Position numbers and translations under genes: made by a program. A stretch of 64,000 nucleotides of DNA from Acidimicrobiales bacterium (lineage in GTDB: Bacteria > Actinomycetota > Acidimicrobiia > Acidimicrobiales > JAHEJN01). Below the pieces are notes generated by a model. The model saw nothing but the letters and a program-made list of their open reading frames with translations. It made no database searches and was not told where the DNA came from. Below are positions 26,293-43,231 of this stretch, in pieces. The number at the start of each line of letters is the position of its first letter. Position 1 is the stretch's first letter. The stretch lies in the NCBI GenBank assembly GCA_024638845.1, contig JAHEJN010000007.1, positions 6,610 to 70,609 of the forward strand, given 5' to 3'.

Positions 26293-26559
26293 TCAGGTCC
26301 CGTACCGGGGGACGTCGGGTCCGACCAGGGCGGCGAAGAGGCCGAGCACCTCACCCGGCTCGGCGTGACGGCCCGTCTCGTGCTTGGAGTAGAGCATCTC
26401 ACCGTCGACCATCACGTCGAACACGCCCTTGTCGCCGGTCACTACGGTGAGGTCGTCGATCACGTGCTGGTAGTTCGACAACAGATCATTGACCGCGCTC
26501 ACGGCGCGAGACGAATAATCTCACGGCACGCAGTAGGTGAGTTCGATTCGGTAAGTCAT
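26293..26559 (-). CDS. SelW/Rdx-family selenoprotein (in-frame UGA = Sec at 26521-26523)
   Basis: ATG at 26559 reads MTYRIELTYCVP-TGA-DYSSRAVSAVNDLL... in the same frame as track ORF 26293..26502. This restores the CxxU redox motif. The downstream GVFDVMVDGEMLYSKHETGRH parallels SelW (FEVMVAGKLIHSKKKGDGY). Confidence 0.7.
26485..26519 (-). promoter_or_regulatory. Candidate bacterial SECIS hairpin
   Basis: On the mRNA, 1 nt after the UGA: lower stem AUUAUU/AAUGAU, an internal loop, upper stem CGCGC/GCGCG and apical loop CGUGA. The loop contains GU and begins 17 nt after the UGA. Confidence 0.5.
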
Positions 26560-26628
26560 CCGGCCAAGCTACCGTGCGTCGGGCGCGTGAGCGCGCGCTA
26601 CGAACCCCATCGATCAGAAAGACCTCTC

Positions 26629-27129
26629 ATGGCCCAAATCACCCTCGGCGGCAATCCGGTTCACACGAACGGCGCTCTGCCATCGGTCGGATCCGCCGCC
26701 CCCGACTTCATGGTCACCAAGAGCGATCTCAGTGCCGTCACCAAGGATGACCTCGCCGGCCAGCGGGTCGTTCTGAACATCTTTCCCAGCATCGACACGC
26801 CGACCTGCGCCACGAGCGTGCGTACGTTCAACCAGCGAGCGTCGGAGGTCGACAACACCGTCGTGTTGTGCGTGTCGGCGGATCTGCCCTTCGCGGCCGG
26901 GCGTTTCTGTGGCGCCGAAGGGATCGAGAACGTCGCCACCGGTTCGACGTTCAAGAACCCCGAGACCCTGACCGACTACGGCGTTCTGATCGAGGACGGC
27001 AAGCTCCAGGGCCTGGCGGCTCGAGCGGTCGTCGTCATCGACGAGGGTGGCACGGTGATCCACACCGAGCTCGTACCCGAGATCGCCAGCGAACCCGACT
27101 ACGACGCGGCGTTGAGCGCGCTCAGCTGA
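26629..27129 (+). CDS. tpx: Thiol peroxidase (atypical 2-Cys peroxiredoxin)
   Basis: ATG at 26629 (MAQITLGGNPV). Peroxidatic Cys in FPSIDTPTC and resolving Cys in VVLCVSADLPFA. Confidence 0.9.
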   Translation: MAQITLGGNPVHTNGALPSVGSAAPDFMVTKSDLSAVTKDDLAGQRVVLNIFPSIDTPTCATSVRTFNQRASEVDNTVVLCVSADLPFAAGRFCGAEGIENVATGSTFKNPETLTDYGVLIEDGKLQGLAARAVVVIDEGGTVIHTELVPEIASEPDYDAALSALS

Positions 27130-27200
27130 GTCTGCGTGGGTGACTCTGAGCGCGCTCGGCTGAGTCTGCGTGGGTGACTCTGAGCGCGCTCAGCTGAGTC
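27113..27200. repeat. 2.6 copies of a 34-bp tandem repeat with embedded palindromes, spanning two convergent stop codons
   Basis: Copies at 27113-46, 27147-80 (one A>G change) and 27181-200 (partial). The unit is tgagcgcgctcagctgagtctgcgtgggtgactc, containing the palindromes gagcgcgctc and ctcagctgag. Confidence 0.9.
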
Positions 27201-28506
27201 CGTCGACCTGGGTGACCCGGACGGCGCCGAAGGTGGCGGCGCCGTCCCCGTCCCAGTCGCCGACGACGATCCCATCGTCGAACAAGCCGAACTCGTAGTC
27301 GAACTCGGCCGGGCCGGCGACGAGGGTGTTGGAGACGAAGTTGGTGGTGCCGCGGCGTACCGCGAAGGAGTCGCTTCCGTCGCCGTCGAAGTCGCCGACG
27401 TACACCCGGTCGGCGGCCTGTCCGTAGCCGAACGTCACATCGGCGACTCCGGTGGTGTTGGAGTTGCGCACGAAGAACTCGTTGCCGCGGCGTACGGCGA
27501 AGGTGTCGCAACCGTCGCTGTCCCAGTCGCCGACGAACACCTCGTCGGCGGCTCGTCCGTAGCCGAGCACGACATCGGCGTTGCCCGACGCGACGGTGTT
27601 CTTCAGGTAGAAGACATTGCCGCGTCGCACCGCAAGGGTGTCGTCGCCATCGCAGTCCCAGTCGCCGACGAGCAGCTGATCGGTGGCCTTGCCGTAGGAG
27701 ATCGAACCCAGCGGCGCGCCGCTCGATGTCAGCAGCTCGAAGATGTTCGCCGAGCGATTCCCGAGATCGGCCGACCCATCGCCGTCGAAGTCGCCGGCGA
27801 CAACCGCGCTGCCCAACGTCGAGAACGAGACGCTGGCCTGGAGGTCCGCCGAGTGCGAGTTGGCCAGATGCACGGAGGTGACCGCCTGGGGTGGGGGTAC
27901 CGAACCATCGCAGTTCGTCGAGATCACCCGAGGCGAGATCGCCGGGTCGACGTTTCGGGTCGAGATCCCCCACTCGTAGGGCACCACCACGCCGTCGAAG
28001 ACGATCTCGACCGGCACGCCGTTGTGACTGATCCCGACATGGAGATGAGCCCCCACCGCGTTCCCGCTGTCGCCGATGAGCCCGATCATCTGACCTTGGC
28101 TCACCGCGCCGCTCACCGCAGAGCCCTCTATCAGGTGGAGGTACGTGCTCGTCCACCCTCCACCGTGATCGATGGTGACCCCCCAGCCGGCGCTGGGGCC
28201 GTAGCTGACGGTGGCGGTGCCGGCGGCGACGGCAAGCGCAGGTGCGCCGAGCTCGTCACCGCCGGGTCCACCGGCGCTGCCGTAGTTCGGCCACTCGGGA
28301 CCGTACCCGTGGAAGTCGATGGCGGGCACGTGCCCGGCACGACTGGCCGGGTACATGGTCTTGCCGCACTCCCATGGTGCGAGGAACAAGGGTTGTCCGT
28401 CGGCGCCTCCAGCCGTACCGCCGGTTGTGGTCACGAGGATGGAGGTGAGCAGAGCGATCGCGACGGTCAGACGTGCGACCATCGGACGCTTGCGTGTACA
28501 GGGCAT
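27190..28506 (-). CDS. Secreted M23 metallopeptidase fused to FG-GAP/VCBS-like repeats
   Basis: A signal/TM segment is followed by M23 motifs (HxxxD-like region, GLIGDSGNAVGAHLH). Four or five repeats of the type VGDWDxDGxDTFAVRRGN follow. Confidence 0.75.
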   Translation of the reverse strand: MPCTRKRPMVARLTVAIALLTSILVTTTGGTAGGADGQPLFLAPWECGKTMYPASRAGHVPAIDFHGYGPEWPNYGSAGGPGGDELGAPALAVAAGTATVSYGPSAGWGVTIDHGGGWTSTYLHLIEGSAVSGAVSQGQMIGLIGDSGNAVGAHLHVGISHNGVPVEIVFDGVVVPYEWGISTRNVDPAISPRVISTNCDGSVPPPQAVTSVHLANSHSADLQASVSFSTLGSAVVAGDFDGDGSADLGNRSANIFELLTSSGAPLGSISYGKATDQLLVGDWDCDGDDTLAVRRGNVFYLKNTVASGNADVVLGYGRAADEVFVGDWDSDGCDTFAVRRGNEFFVRNSNTTGVADVTFGYGQAADRVYVGDFDGDGSDSFAVRRGTTNFVSNTLVAGPAEFDYEFGLFDDGIVVGDWDGDGAATFGAVRVTQVDGLS

Positions 28507-34246: not shown

Positions 34247-34837
34247 ATGATTGCCGAACAAGCCGACTTCGAGAGCGAGGTACGAGAGCTGGTGGCGCGC
34301 GTGCTGGCAGGAGTACTCGACGACCCGGCTCCGGCTGCGGCCCCGTCGACGCCGACCGTGCCGGGTTCTGCTGCGAGCGAGCGCATCGCCATCGGGGCCG
34401 ATCACGGCGGGTTCTCCCTGAAACAGATGCTGGCGGCCGAGCTGGTCGAGGCGGGGTGGCAGGTCGAGGACTGCGGCACCGACAGCACGCAGGCATGCGA
34501 CTATCCCGACATCGCCCACCGAGTCGCCCGCCAGGTGGCCAAGGGCGACTGCACCTGGGGGATCATGATCGACGGGGCGGGCATCGGCTCGGCGATGGTG
34601 GCGAACAAGGTGCCGGGGGTGCGGGCCGCCGCGTGCTACGACCTCTCGACCGCCCGCAACAGCAGGGAGCACAACCGGGCGAACGTGCTCACCCTCGGTG
34701 CGGGTCTCACCGGTGCGGCGTTGGCCTGGCAGATCGTGCAAGAGTGGCTCGCCACGCCGTGGGGCGGCGACCGCCACCTCCGGCGGGTGGCCCTCATCAA
34801 CGAGATCGAAGAGATGTACGCCAGGAGCGAGGCATGA
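34247..34837 (+). CDS. rpiB: Ribose-5-phosphate isomerase B with an N-terminal encapsulation-peptide-like extension
   Basis: The core starts at [13 protein letters not shown]. It has [23 protein letters not shown] and [13 protein letters not shown]. About 45 extra N-terminal residues comprise the amphipathic [17 protein letters not shown] and a Pro/Ala linker. Confidence 0.85.
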
Positions 34838-35682
34838 CCGACGAACCCCTGGACCGTGAGCTGCTCATCGAGCTCATCACCAAGGAAGTGCTCAGCACGC
34901 TCAGCCGTCAGGTCGACCGCTGCGATTCGCCCGAGGGCTTGCGCCAGGTCGTCGTGAACGGCGCCGACCGAGTGGCGTTCCACGGCGATGCGTCCCAGGT
35001 GCCGATCGACCTTGCGATGTACATCGATCACACGGCGCTGAAGCCGGCAACCACGGGCGGCGAGGTCGACGTGCTCTGCCAGGAGGCCGAGCAGTACCAC
35101 TTCGCCACTGTGTGCGTGAATCCGTCGTGGGTGAAGCGCGCCGCCGACAACCTGCGGGGCAGCGACGTCAAGGTCTGCTCGGTCATCGGGTTCCCGTTCG
35201 GGGCCACGACCGGCGAGATCAAGGCCATGGAGGCCCGCCGCGCGATTCGTGACGGCGCCCGCGAAGTCGACATGGTCATCAACATCGGCGCGCTGAAATC
35301 CGGTGATCAGCAGACGGTCCTCACCGAGATGGAGAAGGTGGTCGACTCGGCGCACGAGGCCGGCGCGATCGTCAAGGTGATCATCGAGACGTCGCTGTTG
35401 ACCGACGAGGAGAAGGTGGTCGCCTCGGCGCTGGCCAAGAAGGCGAAGGCCGACTTCGTGAAGACCTCCACCGGGTTCAGCGACGGGGGCGCCACCGTGT
35501 ACGACGTTGCCCTCATGCGCGAGACTGTCGGTCCCGACATGGGCGTGAAGGCGTCGGGTGGCGTGCGAACCGCCGAGGACGTCGAGGACATGATTGCGGC
35601 TGGGGCGACCCGAATCGGGGCCTCGGCCGGAGTACAGATCGTGAGTCGAAACGAGGGAGACAGTAGTGGCGACAAGTATTGA
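34834..35682 (+). CDS. deoC: Deoxyribose-phosphate aldolase (DERA) with an N-terminal encapsulation-peptide-like extension
   Basis: ATG at 34834 overlaps the rpiB stop (ATGA). The core has [20 protein letters not shown] and the Schiff-base lysine in DFVKTSTGF. The N-terminus carries [16 protein letters not shown]. Confidence 0.88.
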
Positions 35683-36289
35683 GATCCGGTCCTTCGCCTT
35701 CCTCGACAGCCTGCAACCGCAGTACGCCGCGTTTCTCGGCACGGTGGCGCAGGGGTTCCTGCCGCTCGCCGGCGACGCCTCGCTGTACGTCGAAGTGGCG
35801 CCGGGCATCGAGATCAATCGCCTGACCGACGTCGCCTTGAAGGCCACGGCGGTCAAGCCCGGCATGCAGATCATCGAGCGCTACTACGGTCTGCTCGAGA
35901 TCCACTCACCCGATCAGGCCGAGACCAGGGCCGCCGGTGCTGCCATTCTCGATGCGGTCGGCCTCGGCGAGTCCGATCGCCTCAAGCCGAAGATCCTGTC
36001 GAGCCAGATCATCCGCCGCATCGACGATCATCACGCACAACTCATCAATCGCATGCGCCACGGCCAGATGATCGTGCCCGGCGAGACCCTGTACGTCCTC
36101 GAGTGCGAACCGGCCGCCTACGCCGCACTGGCCACCAACGAGGCCGAGAAGGCCGCCGACATCAACGTGCTCGAAGTTCGCGCCGCCGGCGCCATGGGCC
36201 GGGTGTATCTCGGCGGCGAGGAGCGCGACATCGACGTCGGCTGGCGGGCCGCAGTGGCCGCGCTGGAAGGACTAGACGGCCGCGAGTAG
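35666..36289 (+). CDS. BMC-T shell protein (tandem BMC domains, probably permuted EutL/PduB-like topology)
   Basis: GTG at 35666 after GAGGGAGA; it overlaps the deoC end by 17 nt. It has two roughly 100-aa halves, the second with [30 protein letters not shown]...GRVYLGGE. Confidence 0.65.
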
Positions 36290-36346
36290 GGCCGATTGCA
36301 GGAAGAAGACCGCAAGCAAACGAAGAGAAGATGAAGGGAGCCAGAA

Positions 36347-36649
36347 ATGGCTGAAGCGCTCGGCATGATCGAATGCAGGAGTTTCGCAGCGATGGTTGAG
36401 GCATCCGATGCGATGGTGAAGGCGGCCAAGGTCGACCTCGTCTCGTACGAGAAGACCGGAGGCGGCTACGTCACTGCGGTGATCCGTGGCGATGTTGCCG
36501 CGGTCAAGGCCGCGGTCGATGCAGGTGTCCGGGGAGCGGAGAAGGTCGGCGAGGTCATCTCGACCCACGTGATCGCCCGTCCGCACGTCAACATCGATGT
36601 CGTGCTTCCCCTGGGTCGGGCCGACGAGGCTGCCGCCGAGTCGAGCTGA
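36347..36649 (+). CDS. BMC-H shell protein (PduA/EutM/CcmK type, Pfam00936-like)
   Basis: MAEALGMIECRSFAAMVEASDAMVKAAKVDLVSYEKTGGGYVTAVIRGDVAAVKAAVDAG is a near-consensus BMC domain. A GAAGGGAG RBS precedes it. Confidence 0.92.
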   Translation: MAEALGMIECRSFAAMVEASDAMVKAAKVDLVSYEKTGGGYVTAVIRGDVAAVKAAVDAGVRGAEKVGEVISTHVIARPHVNIDVVLPLGRADEAAAESS

Positions 36650-36700
36650 TCCCGTGGGAATCGCAGAGAGCCGTGCACCTCGCCGGGAGGTGAGACGACC

Positions 36701-36988
36701 ATGCTGCTCGGCCGCGTGACCGGGACGGTCGTCGCCACCAAGAAGGAACCGCTCATCGAGGGTCTCCCCTTCCTGGTGGTGCGCCAGCTCGGCGTCGACA
36801 ACACCGAGACCGGCGGCTATGTCGTGGCGGTCAACGCGGTCGGTGCGGGCGTCGGCGAGGTGGTCATGTACGCGAGTGGCAGCTCGGCCCGTCAGACCGC
36901 GATGACCCAGAACCGTCCGTGTGATGCCGTCATCATGGCCATCGTCGACACGTGGGAAGTCGACGGCGAGACGATGTACGAGAAGTGA
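36701..36988 (+). CDS. BMC-P pentameric vertex protein (EutN/CcmL/PduN type), copy 1
   Basis: [15 protein letters not shown]...LVVRQL...[23 protein letters not shown]...DAVIMAIVD. Confidence 0.88.
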
Positions 36989-36995
36989 GCAGCCG

Positions 36996-38453
36996 ATGCT
37001 GAGCAACGACGAGGTCGAGTCGATCATCGCTCGGGTGAAGGGTCGCGTTGCTGCCGCCGAGGGCGCGGACCGGACCGGCCTCGGACTACGGGCGGCCGAC
37101 GATCTCGGTGCGGGCGAGGCCCTGCTGGGTGACGGGATCCACCCCAGCATCGACACGGCGGTCGGGGCCGCCCGAGCGGCGTTCGCCGCCTACCGCGGAA
37201 TGGGGCTCGAGTCGCGTCGGGCGATCGTCGAAGCCATGAGGGCGGCCATGCTGCGTGAAGGCGAGCGGCTGGCGTACATGGCCCATGCCGAGACCGGCCT
37301 CGGCCGAGCCGAGGACAAGGTGAAGAAGAACCTGATGGTCACCACCAAGACCCCGGGGCCCGAGGACCTCGAACCGCAGGCGGTCACCGGCGACGAGGGC
37401 ATGATGGTCACCGAGTACGCGCCCTACGGCGTCATCGGGTCGATCACCCCCACGACCAATCCGACCTCGACGATCATCAACAACAGCATCGCCATGGTCG
37501 CCGCCGGCAACGCGGTCACCTTCAACGTGCACCCTGGGGCCAAGCTGGTCTCGGTCGAGAACATCAAGCTTCTGAACCATGCGATCGCCGGTGCCGGCGG
37601 CCCGCCCGATCTCATCACGGCGGTGCCGAACCCCACGCTCGAGTCGGCCAGGGAGCTGATGGCCCACCCCGATGTGCGCGTGCTGCTCGTCACGGGCGGA
37701 CCTGCGGTGGTGGGCGAGGCGTTGCGCACACCGAAGAAGGCCATCACCGCCGGTCCGGGCAATCCACCGGCCGTGGTCGATCACACCGCCGACATCGAGC
37801 AGGCGGCGCGCGACATCGTCCGCGGCGCGTCGTTCGACAACAACATCGTCTGCGTCGACGAGAAGACCACCATCGTCGTCGAAACCGTGGCCGACGCGTT
37901 GGTGCGGGCGATGGTCGGTGCCGGGGCGTACCGCCTCAAGGAGCACGAGCTCCGTCGCCTCGAGCGGGTGATCTTCACGCAGATGGGCGCGCCCAACAAG
38001 CCAGGGGCCATCAATCCGGCGTGGATCGGCAAGAACGCCACCGACCTCCTGGCCGAGATCGGCGTCGCCGTCGACGGCGACGTGCGGCTGTTGGTCGCCG
38101 AGGTACCCGCAGAACACAGCCTGGTGTGGACCGAGCAGATGATGCCGGTGATGCCGGTGGTGCGGGTCAAAGACGTCGAGTCCGCCATCGATCTGGCCGT
38201 GCGCTCCGAGCACGGCTTCCGCCACACGGCGTCGATCCACTCCACCAATGTCGACACCATCACGACGATGGGCCGGGCCATGAACTGCTCGATCCTGGTG
38301 GCCAACGGCCCCAACTTCGCCGGTCTCGGTGAGGGGGGCGAGGGTTTCACGTCGTTCTCCATCGCCAGCCCGACGGGCGAGGGCCTCACTCGACCGCGGA
38401 CCTTCTCGCGCATCCGGCGCGTCGCAGTTGTCGGAGCGTTGCGCATTGTCTGA
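36996..38453 (+). CDS. CoA-acylating aldehyde dehydrogenase (EutE/PduP-like) with an N-terminal encapsulation-peptide-like helix
   Basis: ATG at 36996 (MLSNDEVESIIARVKGRV). YGVIGSITPTTNP, catalytic Cys in FDNNIVCVDEKT. Confidence 0.88.
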   Translation: MLSNDEVESIIARVKGRVAAAEGADRTGLGLRAADDLGAGEALLGDGIHPSIDTAVGAARAAFAAYRGMGLESRRAIVEAMRAAMLREGERLAYMAHAETGLGRAEDKVKKNLMVTTKTPGPEDLEPQAVTGDEGMMVTEYAPYGVIGSITPTTNPTSTIINNSIAMVAAGNAVTFNVHPGAKLVSVENIKLLNHAIAGAGGPPDLITAVPNPTLESARELMAHPDVRVLLVTGGPAVVGEALRTPKKAITAGPGNPPAVVDHTADIEQAARDIVRGASFDNNIVCVDEKTTIVVETVADALVRAMVGAGAYRLKEHELRRLERVIFTQMGAPNKPGAINPAWIGKNATDLLAEIGVAVDGDVRLLVAEVPAEHSLVWTEQMMPVMPVVRVKDVESAIDLAVRSEHGFRHTASIHSTNVDTITTMGRAMNCSILVANGPNFAGLGEGGEGFTSFSIASPTGEGLTRPRTFSRIRRVAVVGALRIV

Positions 38454-39060
38454 CGCCGGCCGCCGTCTCGATCCCGCCATCGGGCTCTTGGAGTTCTCGT
38501 CCATTGCGGCCGGAATCGTCGCCGGCGATGCCATGGCCAAGGCGGCACCCGTCTCGTCGCTCCATGCGGGCACCGTCCACCCTGGCCGATACCTGGTCCT
38601 GGTCGGCGGCGACACCGCTGCGGTCGAGATCGCGCTCGAGCGCGGCGGCACCGACACCGTGGTCGACCACCTGTTGCTCCCGAATGTGCACCCGACGGTC
38701 ATCACGGCCATGACGACGTCGGTGGACAGCGCGCTGCTCGACCACGACGCGCTCGGCATCGTCGAGACGTCCACGGCGGCCACCGCGATCGTGGCTGCCG
38801 ATGCAGGGGTCAAGGCCGCCGATGTGTCATTGCCGGTGGTCCGAGTGGCCGACGACCTGGGGGGCAAGGCGTACTGCCTCTTCTCCGGGGCGGTGGCCGA
38901 CGTCGAAGCCGCCGTCGAGCGCGCGGTCGCCGTCACCGAACCCACCGCGAAGTTGGTCGGAACCGCGGTCATCCCTCAGCTGCACACCGAGATGCGCGAC
39001 AACCTCGCGGCCGAGCTGCGGTTCAATCATCATCTGCAACATCGCTCGGAGTCGTCCTGA
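38446..39060 (+). CDS. BMC-T shell protein (tandem canonical BMC domains, PduT-like)
   Basis: TTG at 38446 is the only plausible start before AIGLLEFSSIAAGIVAGDAMAKAA. The second domain is ALGIVETSTAATAIVAADAGVKAADV. It overlaps the aldehyde dehydrogenase end by 8 nt. Confidence 0.8.
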   Translation: MSDAGRRLDPAIGLLEFSSIAAGIVAGDAMAKAAPVSSLHAGTVHPGRYLVLVGGDTAAVEIALERGGTDTVVDHLLLPNVHPTVITAMTTSVDSALLDHDALGIVETSTAATAIVAADAGVKAADVSLPVVRVADDLGGKAYCLFSGAVADVEAAVERAVAVTEPTAKLVGTAVIPQLHTEMRDNLAAELRFNHHLQHRSESS

Positions 39061-39341
39061 TGTTGCTGGGGCGAGTCATCGGCACGGTCGTCGCGACGGT
39101 CAAGGCCGAAGGCCTCGAAGGAGTGAAGTTCCTGGTCGTCCAGCCGCTCGACAAGCACCGGCGAGACCACGGCGCCGCCATCGTGGCCGCCGACGCGGTG
39201 GCCATGGCAGGACCGGGCGAGCTCGTGTACTTCGTTGCATCTCGCGAGGCGGCCGAGGCCTTGCCCGAGCGGTTCGTGCCCGTCGACCATGCCATCGTGG
39301 GGCTGGTCGATCAGGTGACCCTCAGCGAGGACGACCGTTGA
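39060..39341 (+). CDS. BMC-P vertex protein, copy 2
   Basis: MLLGRVIGTVVATVK...FLVVQPLD...; TGATG overlap with the preceding gene. Confidence 0.85.
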   Translation: MLLGRVIGTVVATVKAEGLEGVKFLVVQPLDKHRRDHGAAIVAADAVAMAGPGELVYFVASREAAEALPERFVPVDHAIVGLVDQVTLSEDDR

Positions 39342-41772: not shown

Positions 41773-41830
41773 TCGACATCGGGTCGCCGACTAGCATGGC
41801 CATCGTCGGTTGGTCGGTCATGGAGGACTC

Positions 41831-42025
41831 ATGCGCGTTGTCGTCGATTTCGATCTGTGTGAGAGCAACGCGGTCTGCATGCAGATCGTGCCCGAGGTGT
41901 TCGAGGTGCGCGACGACGACTTCCTCTACATCTTGAACGAGACACCGGGCGAGGAGCTGCGCGACAAGGTCGAAGAGGCCGTCCAGCGCTGCCCGAAGCA
42001 GGCCATCTCCCTCGCCGAGGGCTGA
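41831..42025 (+). CDS. Small ferredoxin (3Fe-4S/4Fe-4S, P450-partner type)
   Basis: ATG at 41831. MRVVVDFDLCESNAVCMQIVPEVFEV...VQRCPKQAISL. Confidence 0.8.
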   Translation: MRVVVDFDLCESNAVCMQIVPEVFEVRDDDFLYILNETPGEELRDKVEEAVQRCPKQAISLAEG

Positions 42026-42037
42026 GTCCGGCTCGAG

Positions 42038-43231
42038 ATGCAGCGCATCGCGATCGTCGGTGCCTCCCTCGCCGGTCTTCGGGCCGCCCAGGAGCTGCGT
42101 CGACGGGGCTTCACGGGGAACGTCCGGCTGATCGGAGCCGACCCCGAGCTTCCCTACGACCGCCCACCGCTGTCGAAGCAGGTCCTGGCGGGGGAGTGGG
42201 AGCCGGCGCGGGCGATGCTGATCGACCGCAAGGCGCTGCGCAGCGACGACATCGAGATCTCGACCGGCACCGCGGTCACCAGCCTCGACCTCGGCGGGCG
42301 CCGCCTGTCGACCGAGCACGAGAGCATCGACTACGACGGTCTCGTGATCGCCACCGGTGCACGGCCCCGACGCCTGCCGACGGCCACGCCGGCCGGTGTG
42401 CACGAGCTGCGCACGCTCGCCGACGCACGAAGTCTCGTCGCCGATCTGAGCGACGGCCCGCAGACGATCGTCGTGGTGGGTGCAGGGTTCATCGGCGCCG
42501 AGGTGGCCGCCACGTGCCGATCACAGGGGCATCGAGTAACGATCGTCGAGGTCGCGCCGGTGCCGATGGAGCGTGCCGTCGGCGCCGAGATGGGCGCCGT
42601 CATGGCCGATCTCCACCGACGCCACGGTGTCGATGTTCGCCTTGGAGTGGCCGTCGATCAGTTCGTCGGCGACGAACGAGTGGCCGGCGTCGAGCTCGGT
42701 GACGGTTCCACCCTGGAGGCCGACGTGGTCGTGGTCGGGATCGGGGTGGTGCCCAACACCGAGTGGCTCGAGGGATCGGGCCTCGTCCTCGACAATGGCG
42801 TCGTATGCGATGCGACACTGCTGGCGGCTCCGGGCGTGGTGGCTGCCGGTGATGTCGCCCGTTGGCCGAATCTGCTCTTCGACGAGACCATGCGCATCGA
42901 GCACTGGGACAATGCCGGCGACCAGGCGGCAGCCGCCGCGCGTCGCCTGCTCGCCACCGGAGCCGAGGCCCAAGCCTTCACACCGGTGCCGTGGTTCTGG
43001 AGTGATCAGTACGACCGCAAGGTGCAGGTGGCCGGACGCACGAACGACGCCGACGAGGTCGTGGTCGCCCACGGTGCTGTCGACGAGGGCCGGTTCGTTG
43101 CGCTCTACCGCCGAGGTGAGCGCCTGGCCGGAGCCTTCGGCATGAACCGACCCCGTCACGTCATTTCGTCGCGAGCCCTGATCGCAGAGCGGGGCTCCTT
43201 TGCCGAGGCGATCGATCGACTGACCGACTGA
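42038..43231 (+). CDS. FAD-dependent ferredoxin--NAD(P)+ reductase
   Basis: IAIVGASLAGLRAA, VVVGAGFIGAEVA and the C-terminal reductase dimerisation domain (FWSDQYD). Confidence 0.85.
   Translation: MQRIAIVGASLAGLRAAQELRRRGFTGNVRLIGADPELPYDRPPLSKQVLAGEWEPARAMLIDRKALRSDDIEISTGTAVTSLDLGGRRLSTEHESIDYDGLVIATGARPRRLPTATPAGVHELRTLADARSLVADLSDGPQTIVVVGAGFIGAEVAATCRSQGHRVTIVEVAPVPMERAVGAEMGAVMADLHRRHGVDVRLGVAVDQFVGDERVAGVELGDGSTLEADVVVVGIGVVPNTEWLEGSGLVLDNGVVCDATLLAAPGVVAAGDVARWPNLLFDETMRIEHWDNAGDQAAAAARRLLATGAEAQAFTPVPWFWSDQYDRKVQVAGRTNDADEVVVAHGAVDEGRFVALYRRGERLAGAFGMNRPRHVISSRALIAERGSFAEAIDRLTD

Follow-up and report, generated by a model that had tools for sequence, protein, structure and literature searches.

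A probable SelW-like selenoprotein gene of Acidimicrobiia, truncated in annotation at a GTG within its putative SECIS loop

INTRODUCTION

Among the selenoprotein families surveyed in the Sargasso Sea, the SelW-like proteins were the most abundant, being represented by 48 Sec and 7 Cys forms, all of the CXXU type, and the function of the family is poorly defined (PMC1088965). The family is noted for its few Cys homologues (PMC1794560), and Peng et al. recorded it for 35 organisms (PMC5029168, Table S3). Both the SelW-like CXXU family and the recoding of UGA by a SECIS element placed within the coding region have been known since 2005, and the gene described here represents neither a new mechanism nor a new family.

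Bacterial SECIS elements are described by a bSECIS model with a loop of 3 to 9 nt, an upper stem of 4 to 16 bp, a distance from UGA to loop of 16 to 37 nt, a G at loop position 1 or 2 that is usually followed by G or U, and a minimum free energy (MFE) of −7.5 kcal/mol or lower (PMC13188914). In complexes of SelB with SECIS, a conserved G lies about 20 nt downstream of the UGA (PMC4605307).

The Acidimicrobiia are an abundant and mostly uncultured class of soil, marine, and wastewater bacteria. SelD, SelA, and SelB are recorded, together with 15, 10, and 7 selenoproteins, for Ilumatobacter coccineus, I. nonamiensis, and “Ca. Microthrix parvicella,” respectively, and Acidimicrobium ferrooxidans is listed without SelD, SelA, and SelB (Peng et al. 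2016, PMC5029168, Tables S1 and S2). The genes selA, selB, selC, and selD are present in all 84 complete Actinomarina genomes (2026 Actinomarina preprint). Among Acidimicrobiia, the use of selenocysteine (Sec) is no rarity (Peng et al. 2016; Actinomarina preprint), which narrows the remark of an earlier sequence-only reading of the present locus that selenoproteins are uncommon in Actinomycetota.

RESULTS

Reading frame and annotation of the gene

The window (the whole stretch of DNA that was analyzed, 64,000 nucleotides from an Acidimicrobiales bacterium) contains on its minus strand an open frame interrupted by a single UGA. Starting at the ATG at 26559, the frame reads MTYRIELTYCVP, meets the UGA at 26523-26521, and continues as DYSSRAVSAV... 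in frame to 26293. The codons that follow the ATG are ACT TAC CGA ATC GAA CTC ACC TAC TGC GTG CCG TGA, the last of these being the UGA at 26523-26521; on its 3' side the codons continue GAT TAT TCG TCT CGC GCC GTG AGC GCG GTC..., and the terminating TGA occupies 26295-26293. The terminating UGA, unlike the internal one, is not accompanied by the hairpin described below. In the mechanical list of open reading frames, the same locus appears as a 69-amino-acid (aa) ORF without Cys, running from GTG 26502 to 26293. The sequence-only reading, which had placed an ATG at 26559 and a TGA at 26521-26523 ahead of a called ORF that starts at GTG 26502 and lacks a redox motif, proved exact in all of these particulars. 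The features of the locus are collected in Table 1.

Table 1. Coordinates of the SelW-like gene, its proposed recoding signals, and the adjacent gene
Feature	Position in the window	Strand	Remark
Full SelW-like/Rdx coding sequence	26293..26559	-	88 codons including one probable Sec, plus stop; same in-frame architecture in 80 species
In-frame UGA, probably read as selenocysteine (U13)	26521..26523	-	Conserved stop; aligned with Cys of homologues
C-V-P-U redox motif (CxxU), end of strand beta-1	26521..26532	-	Y-C-V-P 99-100% conserved
GTG used by gene callers as start	26500..26502	-	Invariant GUG of the putative SECIS loop; encodes Val20
Conserved putative SECIS core	26494..26508	-	5' arm CGCGC 26508-26504, loop CGUGA 26503-26499, 3' arm GCGCG 26498-26494
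Extended hairpin of the window sequence	26484..26520	-	Lower stem GAUUAUU 26520-26514 / AAUGAUC 26490-26484 around the core
Tpx-type thiol peroxidase, divergent, 69 bp from the SelW-like start	26629..27129	+	Pfam Redoxin 106.6 bits

A search of protein collections retrieved 838 homologues, and lengths were read for the best 120. Among these, 118 are proteins of 66 to 74 aa that cover only about 72 to 80% of the query, in agreement with the expectation that such genes are truncated by gene callers. Several of the short homologues, from metagenome-assembled genomes (MAGs) of Acidimicrobiia, carry the name “Rdx family protein” or “selenoprotein W-related.” The database homologues start with “MSAV...” or “VSAV...” at the GUG codon of the SECIS loop, and a GTG is found at codon +7 in all 81 sequences aligned. 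Both the 69-aa call in the window and the uniform 69- to 70-aa “MSAV...” proteins of the databases arise because the first start-type codon after the UGA is this loop GUG, and the 69-aa annotation is an artefact of gene calling. That UGA has been reassigned throughout the genome is excluded, since the SelW-like gene itself terminates in UGA and ordinary genes of the window also end in this codon. A scan for promoters and terminators between 26150 and 26750 found nothing.

Protein family, active site, and fold

The 88-aa protein, with U read as C, matches the Pfam Rdx profile (PF10262) with 56.5 bits over profile positions 1 to 69 of 74 (cutoff, 22.6), and the 69-aa called ORF obtains 33.1 bits over positions 21 to 69 only, so that the addition of 19 upstream codons raises the score from 33.1 to 56.5 bits. 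The NCBIfam model TIGR02174 (SelT/SelW/SelH; cutoff, 34.2) is passed by the long form with 41.8 bits and failed by the 69-aa form with 22.6 bits. Both profiles bear out the Rdx/SelW-like identity first proposed from the letters of the sequence. The best match to an NCBIfam equivalog is NF041051 (Campylobacter type), which with 65.1 bits stays below its cutoff of 88 bits, so that the protein is assigned to a subfamily of its own that spans the Acidimicrobiia.

The long form aligns from residue 2 to 5 onward with the bacterial Rdx proteins of known structure 3DEX, 2FA8, and 2OJL. In these sequence alignments, the UGA position (U13) coincides with the second Cys of the CTQC motif in all three structures and with the last Cys of CVPC in the homologues P0001, P0003, and L008 (described below), so that alignment with Cys-containing relatives places the UGA where the sequence-only reading had put it, at the Sec/Cys site of a CxxU motif. 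The fold was examined on the Cys-containing homologue P0001, which is 77% identical to the window protein, by means of an AlphaFold model with a pLDDT of 76. The model has the order beta1-alpha1-beta2-beta3-beta4-alpha2, with strand beta-1 ending at the first Cys and helix alpha-1 following it. All top Foldseek matches of this model are Rdx proteins (3DEX, 2FA8, 2P0G, 2OBK, 2OKA, and 2OJL; target-normalised TM, 0.80 to 0.88), and mouse SelW (2NPB) gives a target-normalised TM of 0.70. The 12 residues before the UGA constitute the first strand of the sheet and half of the active site, and are therefore not a dispensable leader. Positions 26559 to 26293 of the minus strand thus very probably encode a SelW-like (Rdx) oxidoreductase with the active site Cys10-Val-Pro-Sec13. 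Its function would be one of thiol/selenol redox chemistry, as a thioredoxin-like fold that carries a CxxU motif points to a selenenylsulfide/thiol-selenol cycle.

Conservation of the UGA among relatives

A scan with one genome per species yielded 471 relatives, and the best 80 loci, all from MAGs or closed chromosomes of Acidimicrobiia, were fetched. In 79 of these 80 species, translation upstream of the annotated gene gives xIxITYCVP-stop-(D/N)YS... in frame; the one exception, L008 from a “Ca. Microthrix” MAG, has a Cys (CVPC) at the position of the UGA. The codon itself was read at 81 loci, comprising 76 species and five copies from the population of the window itself: it is TGA at 80 loci (75 species) and TGT in L008, and the four remaining loci have an in-frame stop at the same position. 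The loci with TGA include MAGs labelled Ilumatobacteraceae and “Ca. Microthrix,” and the relatives at the species level share only 64 to 90% protein identity. Closed chromosomes in which the gene has the in-frame UGA are OZ244195.1, OZ243946.1, OZ245048.1, and OZ244166.1. The closest sequences to the window are contig CAMYKR010000006.1 of GCA_947259135.1 (99.4% identical) and a Logan contig from SRR12825419 (99.97% identical). Two full-length matches with Cys (P0001 and P0003, which read ...ITYCVPCDYS...) are present among the best 120 of the 838 database homologues.

Every homologue has an in-frame start 11 to 21, mostly 12 to 15, codons upstream of the UGA. Immediately before the UGA, Val-2 is encoded by four codons and Pro-1 by three with the amino acids remaining fixed, and this synonymous variation shows that the region upstream of the UGA is translated in frame. 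The Cys form of L008 retains an intact CGCGCCGUGAGCGCG hairpin (L008:10019-10093), which suggests that Sec was replaced by Cys recently.

Structure and folding of the putative SECIS hairpin

The hairpin core begins 12 nt and its loop 17 nt after the UGA. The core alone has a folding energy of −6.9 kcal/mol, and the extended structure (26520-26484), in which an internal loop separates the lower from the upper stem, has −11.5 kcal/mol. The element shows the features of the bSECIS model throughout, namely, a 5-nt loop CGUGA with G at position 2 followed by U, a 5-bp stem, a spacing of 17 nt, and an MFE of −11.5 kcal/mol; the GU-containing loop 17 nt after the UGA had been noticed from the sequence alone, and it falls within the 16 to 37 nt of the model (PMC13188914). 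The limit of −7.5 kcal/mol is reached by 96% of the 81 homologues. The distance from the UGA to the loop G is 19 nt, consistent with the conserved G of SelB-SECIS complexes.

Compared with dinucleotide shuffles, the folding of the single sequence gives z values of −0.26 (26470-26530) and −0.04 (26440-26565). As these are near 0, the folding energy is not above chance and by itself lends no support to a SECIS; the significance of the predicted hairpin is carried by comparative data. A covariance-model search with Rfam, a check suggested by the earlier reading, gave no relevant match for the hairpin region: no family reached its gathering threshold in the window, and with E values up to 10 only weak, unrelated matches on the opposite strand were obtained between 26200 and 26700. 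This null result says little, because the Rfam SECIS models represent bacterial SECIS poorly (2026 Actinomarina preprint).

Evolutionary constraint on the hairpin

The 75 nt around the UGA form an ungapped alignment of 81 sequences. In the apical stem (alignment columns 28 to 32 with 38 to 42, i.e., 26508-26504 with 26498-26494), 96% of the cells are paired, and double changes, amounting to 13 cells, are found at four of the five pairs. The observed paired fraction, number of double-change cells, and covariation score are each unmatched in 500 column shuffles, and shifting the 3' partner along the alignment abolishes the signal. The compensations combine amino acid replacements with silent changes: G-C to A-U is brought about by an Ala>Thr replacement in one arm coupled with the synonymous AGC>AGU in the opposite arm, and C-G to U-A by synonymous CGC>CGU together with Ala>Thr.

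Freezing of synonymous positions is confined to codons +5 to +9, which have zero or near-zero entropy. Ala+6 is GCC in 75 of 75 cases, Val+7 is GUG in all 81, Arg+5 is only CGC or CGU, and Ser+8 is only AGC or AGU. The control codons for invariant residues with four- or sixfold degeneracy (Val-2, Gly29, Val36, Arg51, and Ala53) have a codon entropy of 1.1 to 2.0 bits. The invariance of the loop GTG thus has an RNA-structure cause, because the adjacent Ala GCC and Ser AGY codons are equally frozen. In about 1.3 Mb of Acidimicrobiia DNA, 74 of the 75 matches to the hairpin motif lie in the SelW-like gene.

The lower 7-bp stem behaves differently from this core, in that it is only 58.6% paired across species, is not conserved, and is replaced by other lower pairings in other species. 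The extended hairpin of the sequence-only reading is therefore present in the window, at 26520-26484 and within one base of the proposed limits, and as a conserved element it is reduced to its upper part.

Codon choice beside the UGA is unusual outside the hairpin as well (26509-26520 and 26524-26526 on the minus strand of the window; alignment columns 10 to 27). For Tyr+2, 72 of 81 sequences have UAU, although UAC is preferred at the remaining Tyr positions of the gene, and Pro-1 is CCU in 44 of 80; elsewhere in the SelW-like gene, codons ending in C or G dominate, and the genome has a GC content of 68%. This bias may reflect a nucleotide-context constraint on Sec decoding.

Sec machinery and gene neighborhood

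No tRNA gene was found by ARAGORN in the 64-kb window, and neither the window nor the flanking DNA of 85 related loci yielded selA, selB, selD, or a tRNA-Sec gene. A motif search for SelD and SelA and a tblastn search with approximate E. coli SelD and SelA sequences likewise gave no match in the window and the 85 loci; the tblastn result is weak negative evidence, given such queries and the small size of the regions. The window was also searched for a second selenoprotein gene, both as an in-frame TGA with coding potential on either side and as a TGA accompanied by a similar hairpin, and none was found. The other candidates with an in-frame TGA are all adjacent genes or antisense frames. Among them, 41810-43231 (plus strand) consists of a 4Fe-4S ferredoxin gene (41810-42025) and a gene for a ferredoxin-reductase-like flavoprotein (42038-43231) in the same frame with a single TGA between them, i.e., two ordinary adjacent genes and not a selenoprotein.

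The neighbors of the SelW-like gene differ by lineage (loci L006 to L085), with Tpx at 14 loci, a divergent flavodoxin-like protein at 17, a YbaK-like protein at 14, and a TrmH-like methyltransferase at 12. Two of these four recurrent neighbors are redox proteins, and there is no single conserved partner. Because the neighbors differ between lineages, no partner can be inferred from them. A functional link between the SelW-like protein and the divergent tpx of the window was considered and rejected, as only 14 of about 77 relatives have the two genes side by side; the presence of Tpx is a suggestive but weak functional hint. Just past tpx, 27190-28506 (minus strand) encodes a secreted-looking protein of 438 aa with a Peptidase_M23 domain and FG-GAP-like repeats, which is found beside the SelW-like gene in two relatives only. 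Farther away, 34456-39341 (plus strand) contains a cluster of bacterial-microcompartment type, with a DeoC/LacD aldolase-like protein, a 207-aa ORF, a BMC-H shell protein (PF00936), an aldehyde dehydrogenase (PF00171), and an EutN/CcmL vertex protein (PF03319).

DISCUSSION

Proposed decoding and alternative explanations

In the proposed mechanism, translation would start at the ATG at 26559, and SelB, bound to the hairpin at 26508-26494, would bring Sec-tRNA(Sec) to the UGA at 26523-26521. A CxxU oxidoreductase of 88 residues with a thioredoxin fold would result, and the second UGA (26295-26293), which has no such hairpin, would terminate translation. This course of events as a whole is considered highly probable. 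SelB binding and actual insertion of Sec are inferred. The retention of the UGA at the catalytic position in 79 species, taken together with the covarying hairpin, can hardly be accounted for unless a recoding system is at work.

Three other explanations, namely, that the UGA is a true stop and the protein short, that the gene is a pseudogene, and that the UGA is read through with something other than Sec, are unlikely even when taken jointly. That the UGA is a genuine stop, the gene starting at GTG 26502 and yielding a 69-aa Rdx fragment without redox motif, agrees with the annotation here and in 118 of the best 120 homologues and with the 33.1 bits that the short form still obtains on Pfam Rdx. 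It is nevertheless very improbable, since the peptide encoded by the 12 upstream codons is conserved in 80 species while synonymous sites vary, and since this peptide contributes the CxxC/U motif and strand beta-1 to the fold. In addition, the short form does not pass TIGR02174, full-length Cys-containing homologues exist, and the invariance of the GTG is accounted for by RNA structure. A pseudogene, in which a Cys codon (TGC or TGT) had recently mutated to TGA and inactivated the gene, would require a single-base change, and the relative L008 does have TGT at this position. Against it stand the same in-frame stop in 79 of 80 species-level genomes that have diverged to 64 to 90% protein identity, the purifying selection that persists on both sides of the UGA, and the conserved, covarying hairpin that accompanies the stop; an origin of the stop in assembly or binning artefacts is implausible in view of 80 independent assemblies. 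This explanation is exceedingly improbable.

The UGA could also be read through with an amino acid other than Sec, either by near-cognate Trp or Cys insertion stimulated by the hairpin or by insertion of Cys via the Sec pathway at low selenium. Hairpins that lie 3' of stop codons can in general stimulate read-through, and no Sec machinery is found among the 64-kb window and the 85 related loci. The site is, however, the catalytic Cys/Sec position of a family with many known Sec members, and the hairpin fits all of the specific constraints on a bacterial SECIS, including the GU of the loop and the spacing. In addition, related cultured Acidimicrobiia have SelA, SelB, and SelD together with 7 to 15 selenoproteins (PMC5029168). 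Read-through of this kind is thus quite improbable, and decoding of the UGA as Sec is the reading retained here.

Implications for Acidimicrobiia

What is new is the gene itself, the scale of its mis-annotation in Acidimicrobiia, the supported minimal SECIS core, and the explanation of the false start. The same truncation is seen in essentially every Acidimicrobiia MAG examined, and being systematic, it means that the selenoproteomes of this class are undercounted. The false GTG start within the SECIS loop is an easy diagnostic for the error, and the well-conserved minimal hairpin would be well suited as the starting point for a bacterial SECIS model specific to this lineage.

A broader proposal, put forward tentatively and itself rather doubtful, is that nearly all Acidimicrobiia (79 of 80 species) have the SelW-like protein in its selenoprotein form, with a class-specific, unusually minimal, and rigid SECIS consisting of 5 bp plus an invariant CGUGR loop placed exactly 12 nt after the UGA. 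If the hairpin is the recognition code of the SelB of Acidimicrobiia, the complete set of selenoproteins of the class could be sought with it as a probe. It would also mark the SelW-like protein, rather than FdhA or SelD, as a main reason for these aerobes to retain the Sec trait.

Comparison with known systems

The gene most closely resembles those of the bacterial SelW-like selenoproteins defined by Zhang, Gladyshev, and colleagues (CXXU; PF10262 and TIGR02174 CXXU_selWTH; PMC1088965 and PMC1794560), with which it shares the same domain at scores above the curated cutoffs. Also shared are the CxxU motif after strand beta-1, the small size (88 aa here), and a Sec-UGA with a SECIS hairpin directly downstream in the coding region. 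Cys-containing homologues are likewise rare in the clade, and nothing essential differs.

In relation to the SECIS of E. coli fdhF type and the consensus bSECIS (PMC13188914, Fig. 2), the putative SelB site described here has in common a stem-loop that lies within the ORF and follows the UGA closely, a short loop at its apex in which positions 2 and 3 are G and U, and a spacing, here 17 nt, within 16 to 37 nt. It differs from the fdhF type in that the conserved part comprises only 5 bp and a 5-nt loop (CGUGR), without a conserved bulged U, and in that the lower stem is not conserved across species. The minimal fdhF element reportedly has a spacer of 11 nt between the UGA and its mini-helix, which is close to the 12 nt of the SelW-like gene.

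The thioredoxin-like fold is shared with the Cys-type Rdx proteins (3DEX SAV_2001, 2FA8 Atu0228, 2P0G, 2OBK, 2OKA, and 2OJL) and with mouse SelW (2NPB). The solved bacterial Rdx structures have Cys and not Sec, at a sequence identity of 20 to 35%, with C-T-Q-C in the place of the C-V-P-U found here. Eukaryotic SelW has its SECIS in the 3' untranslated region, whereas the SelW-like gene of Acidimicrobiia carries the putative element within its coding sequence.
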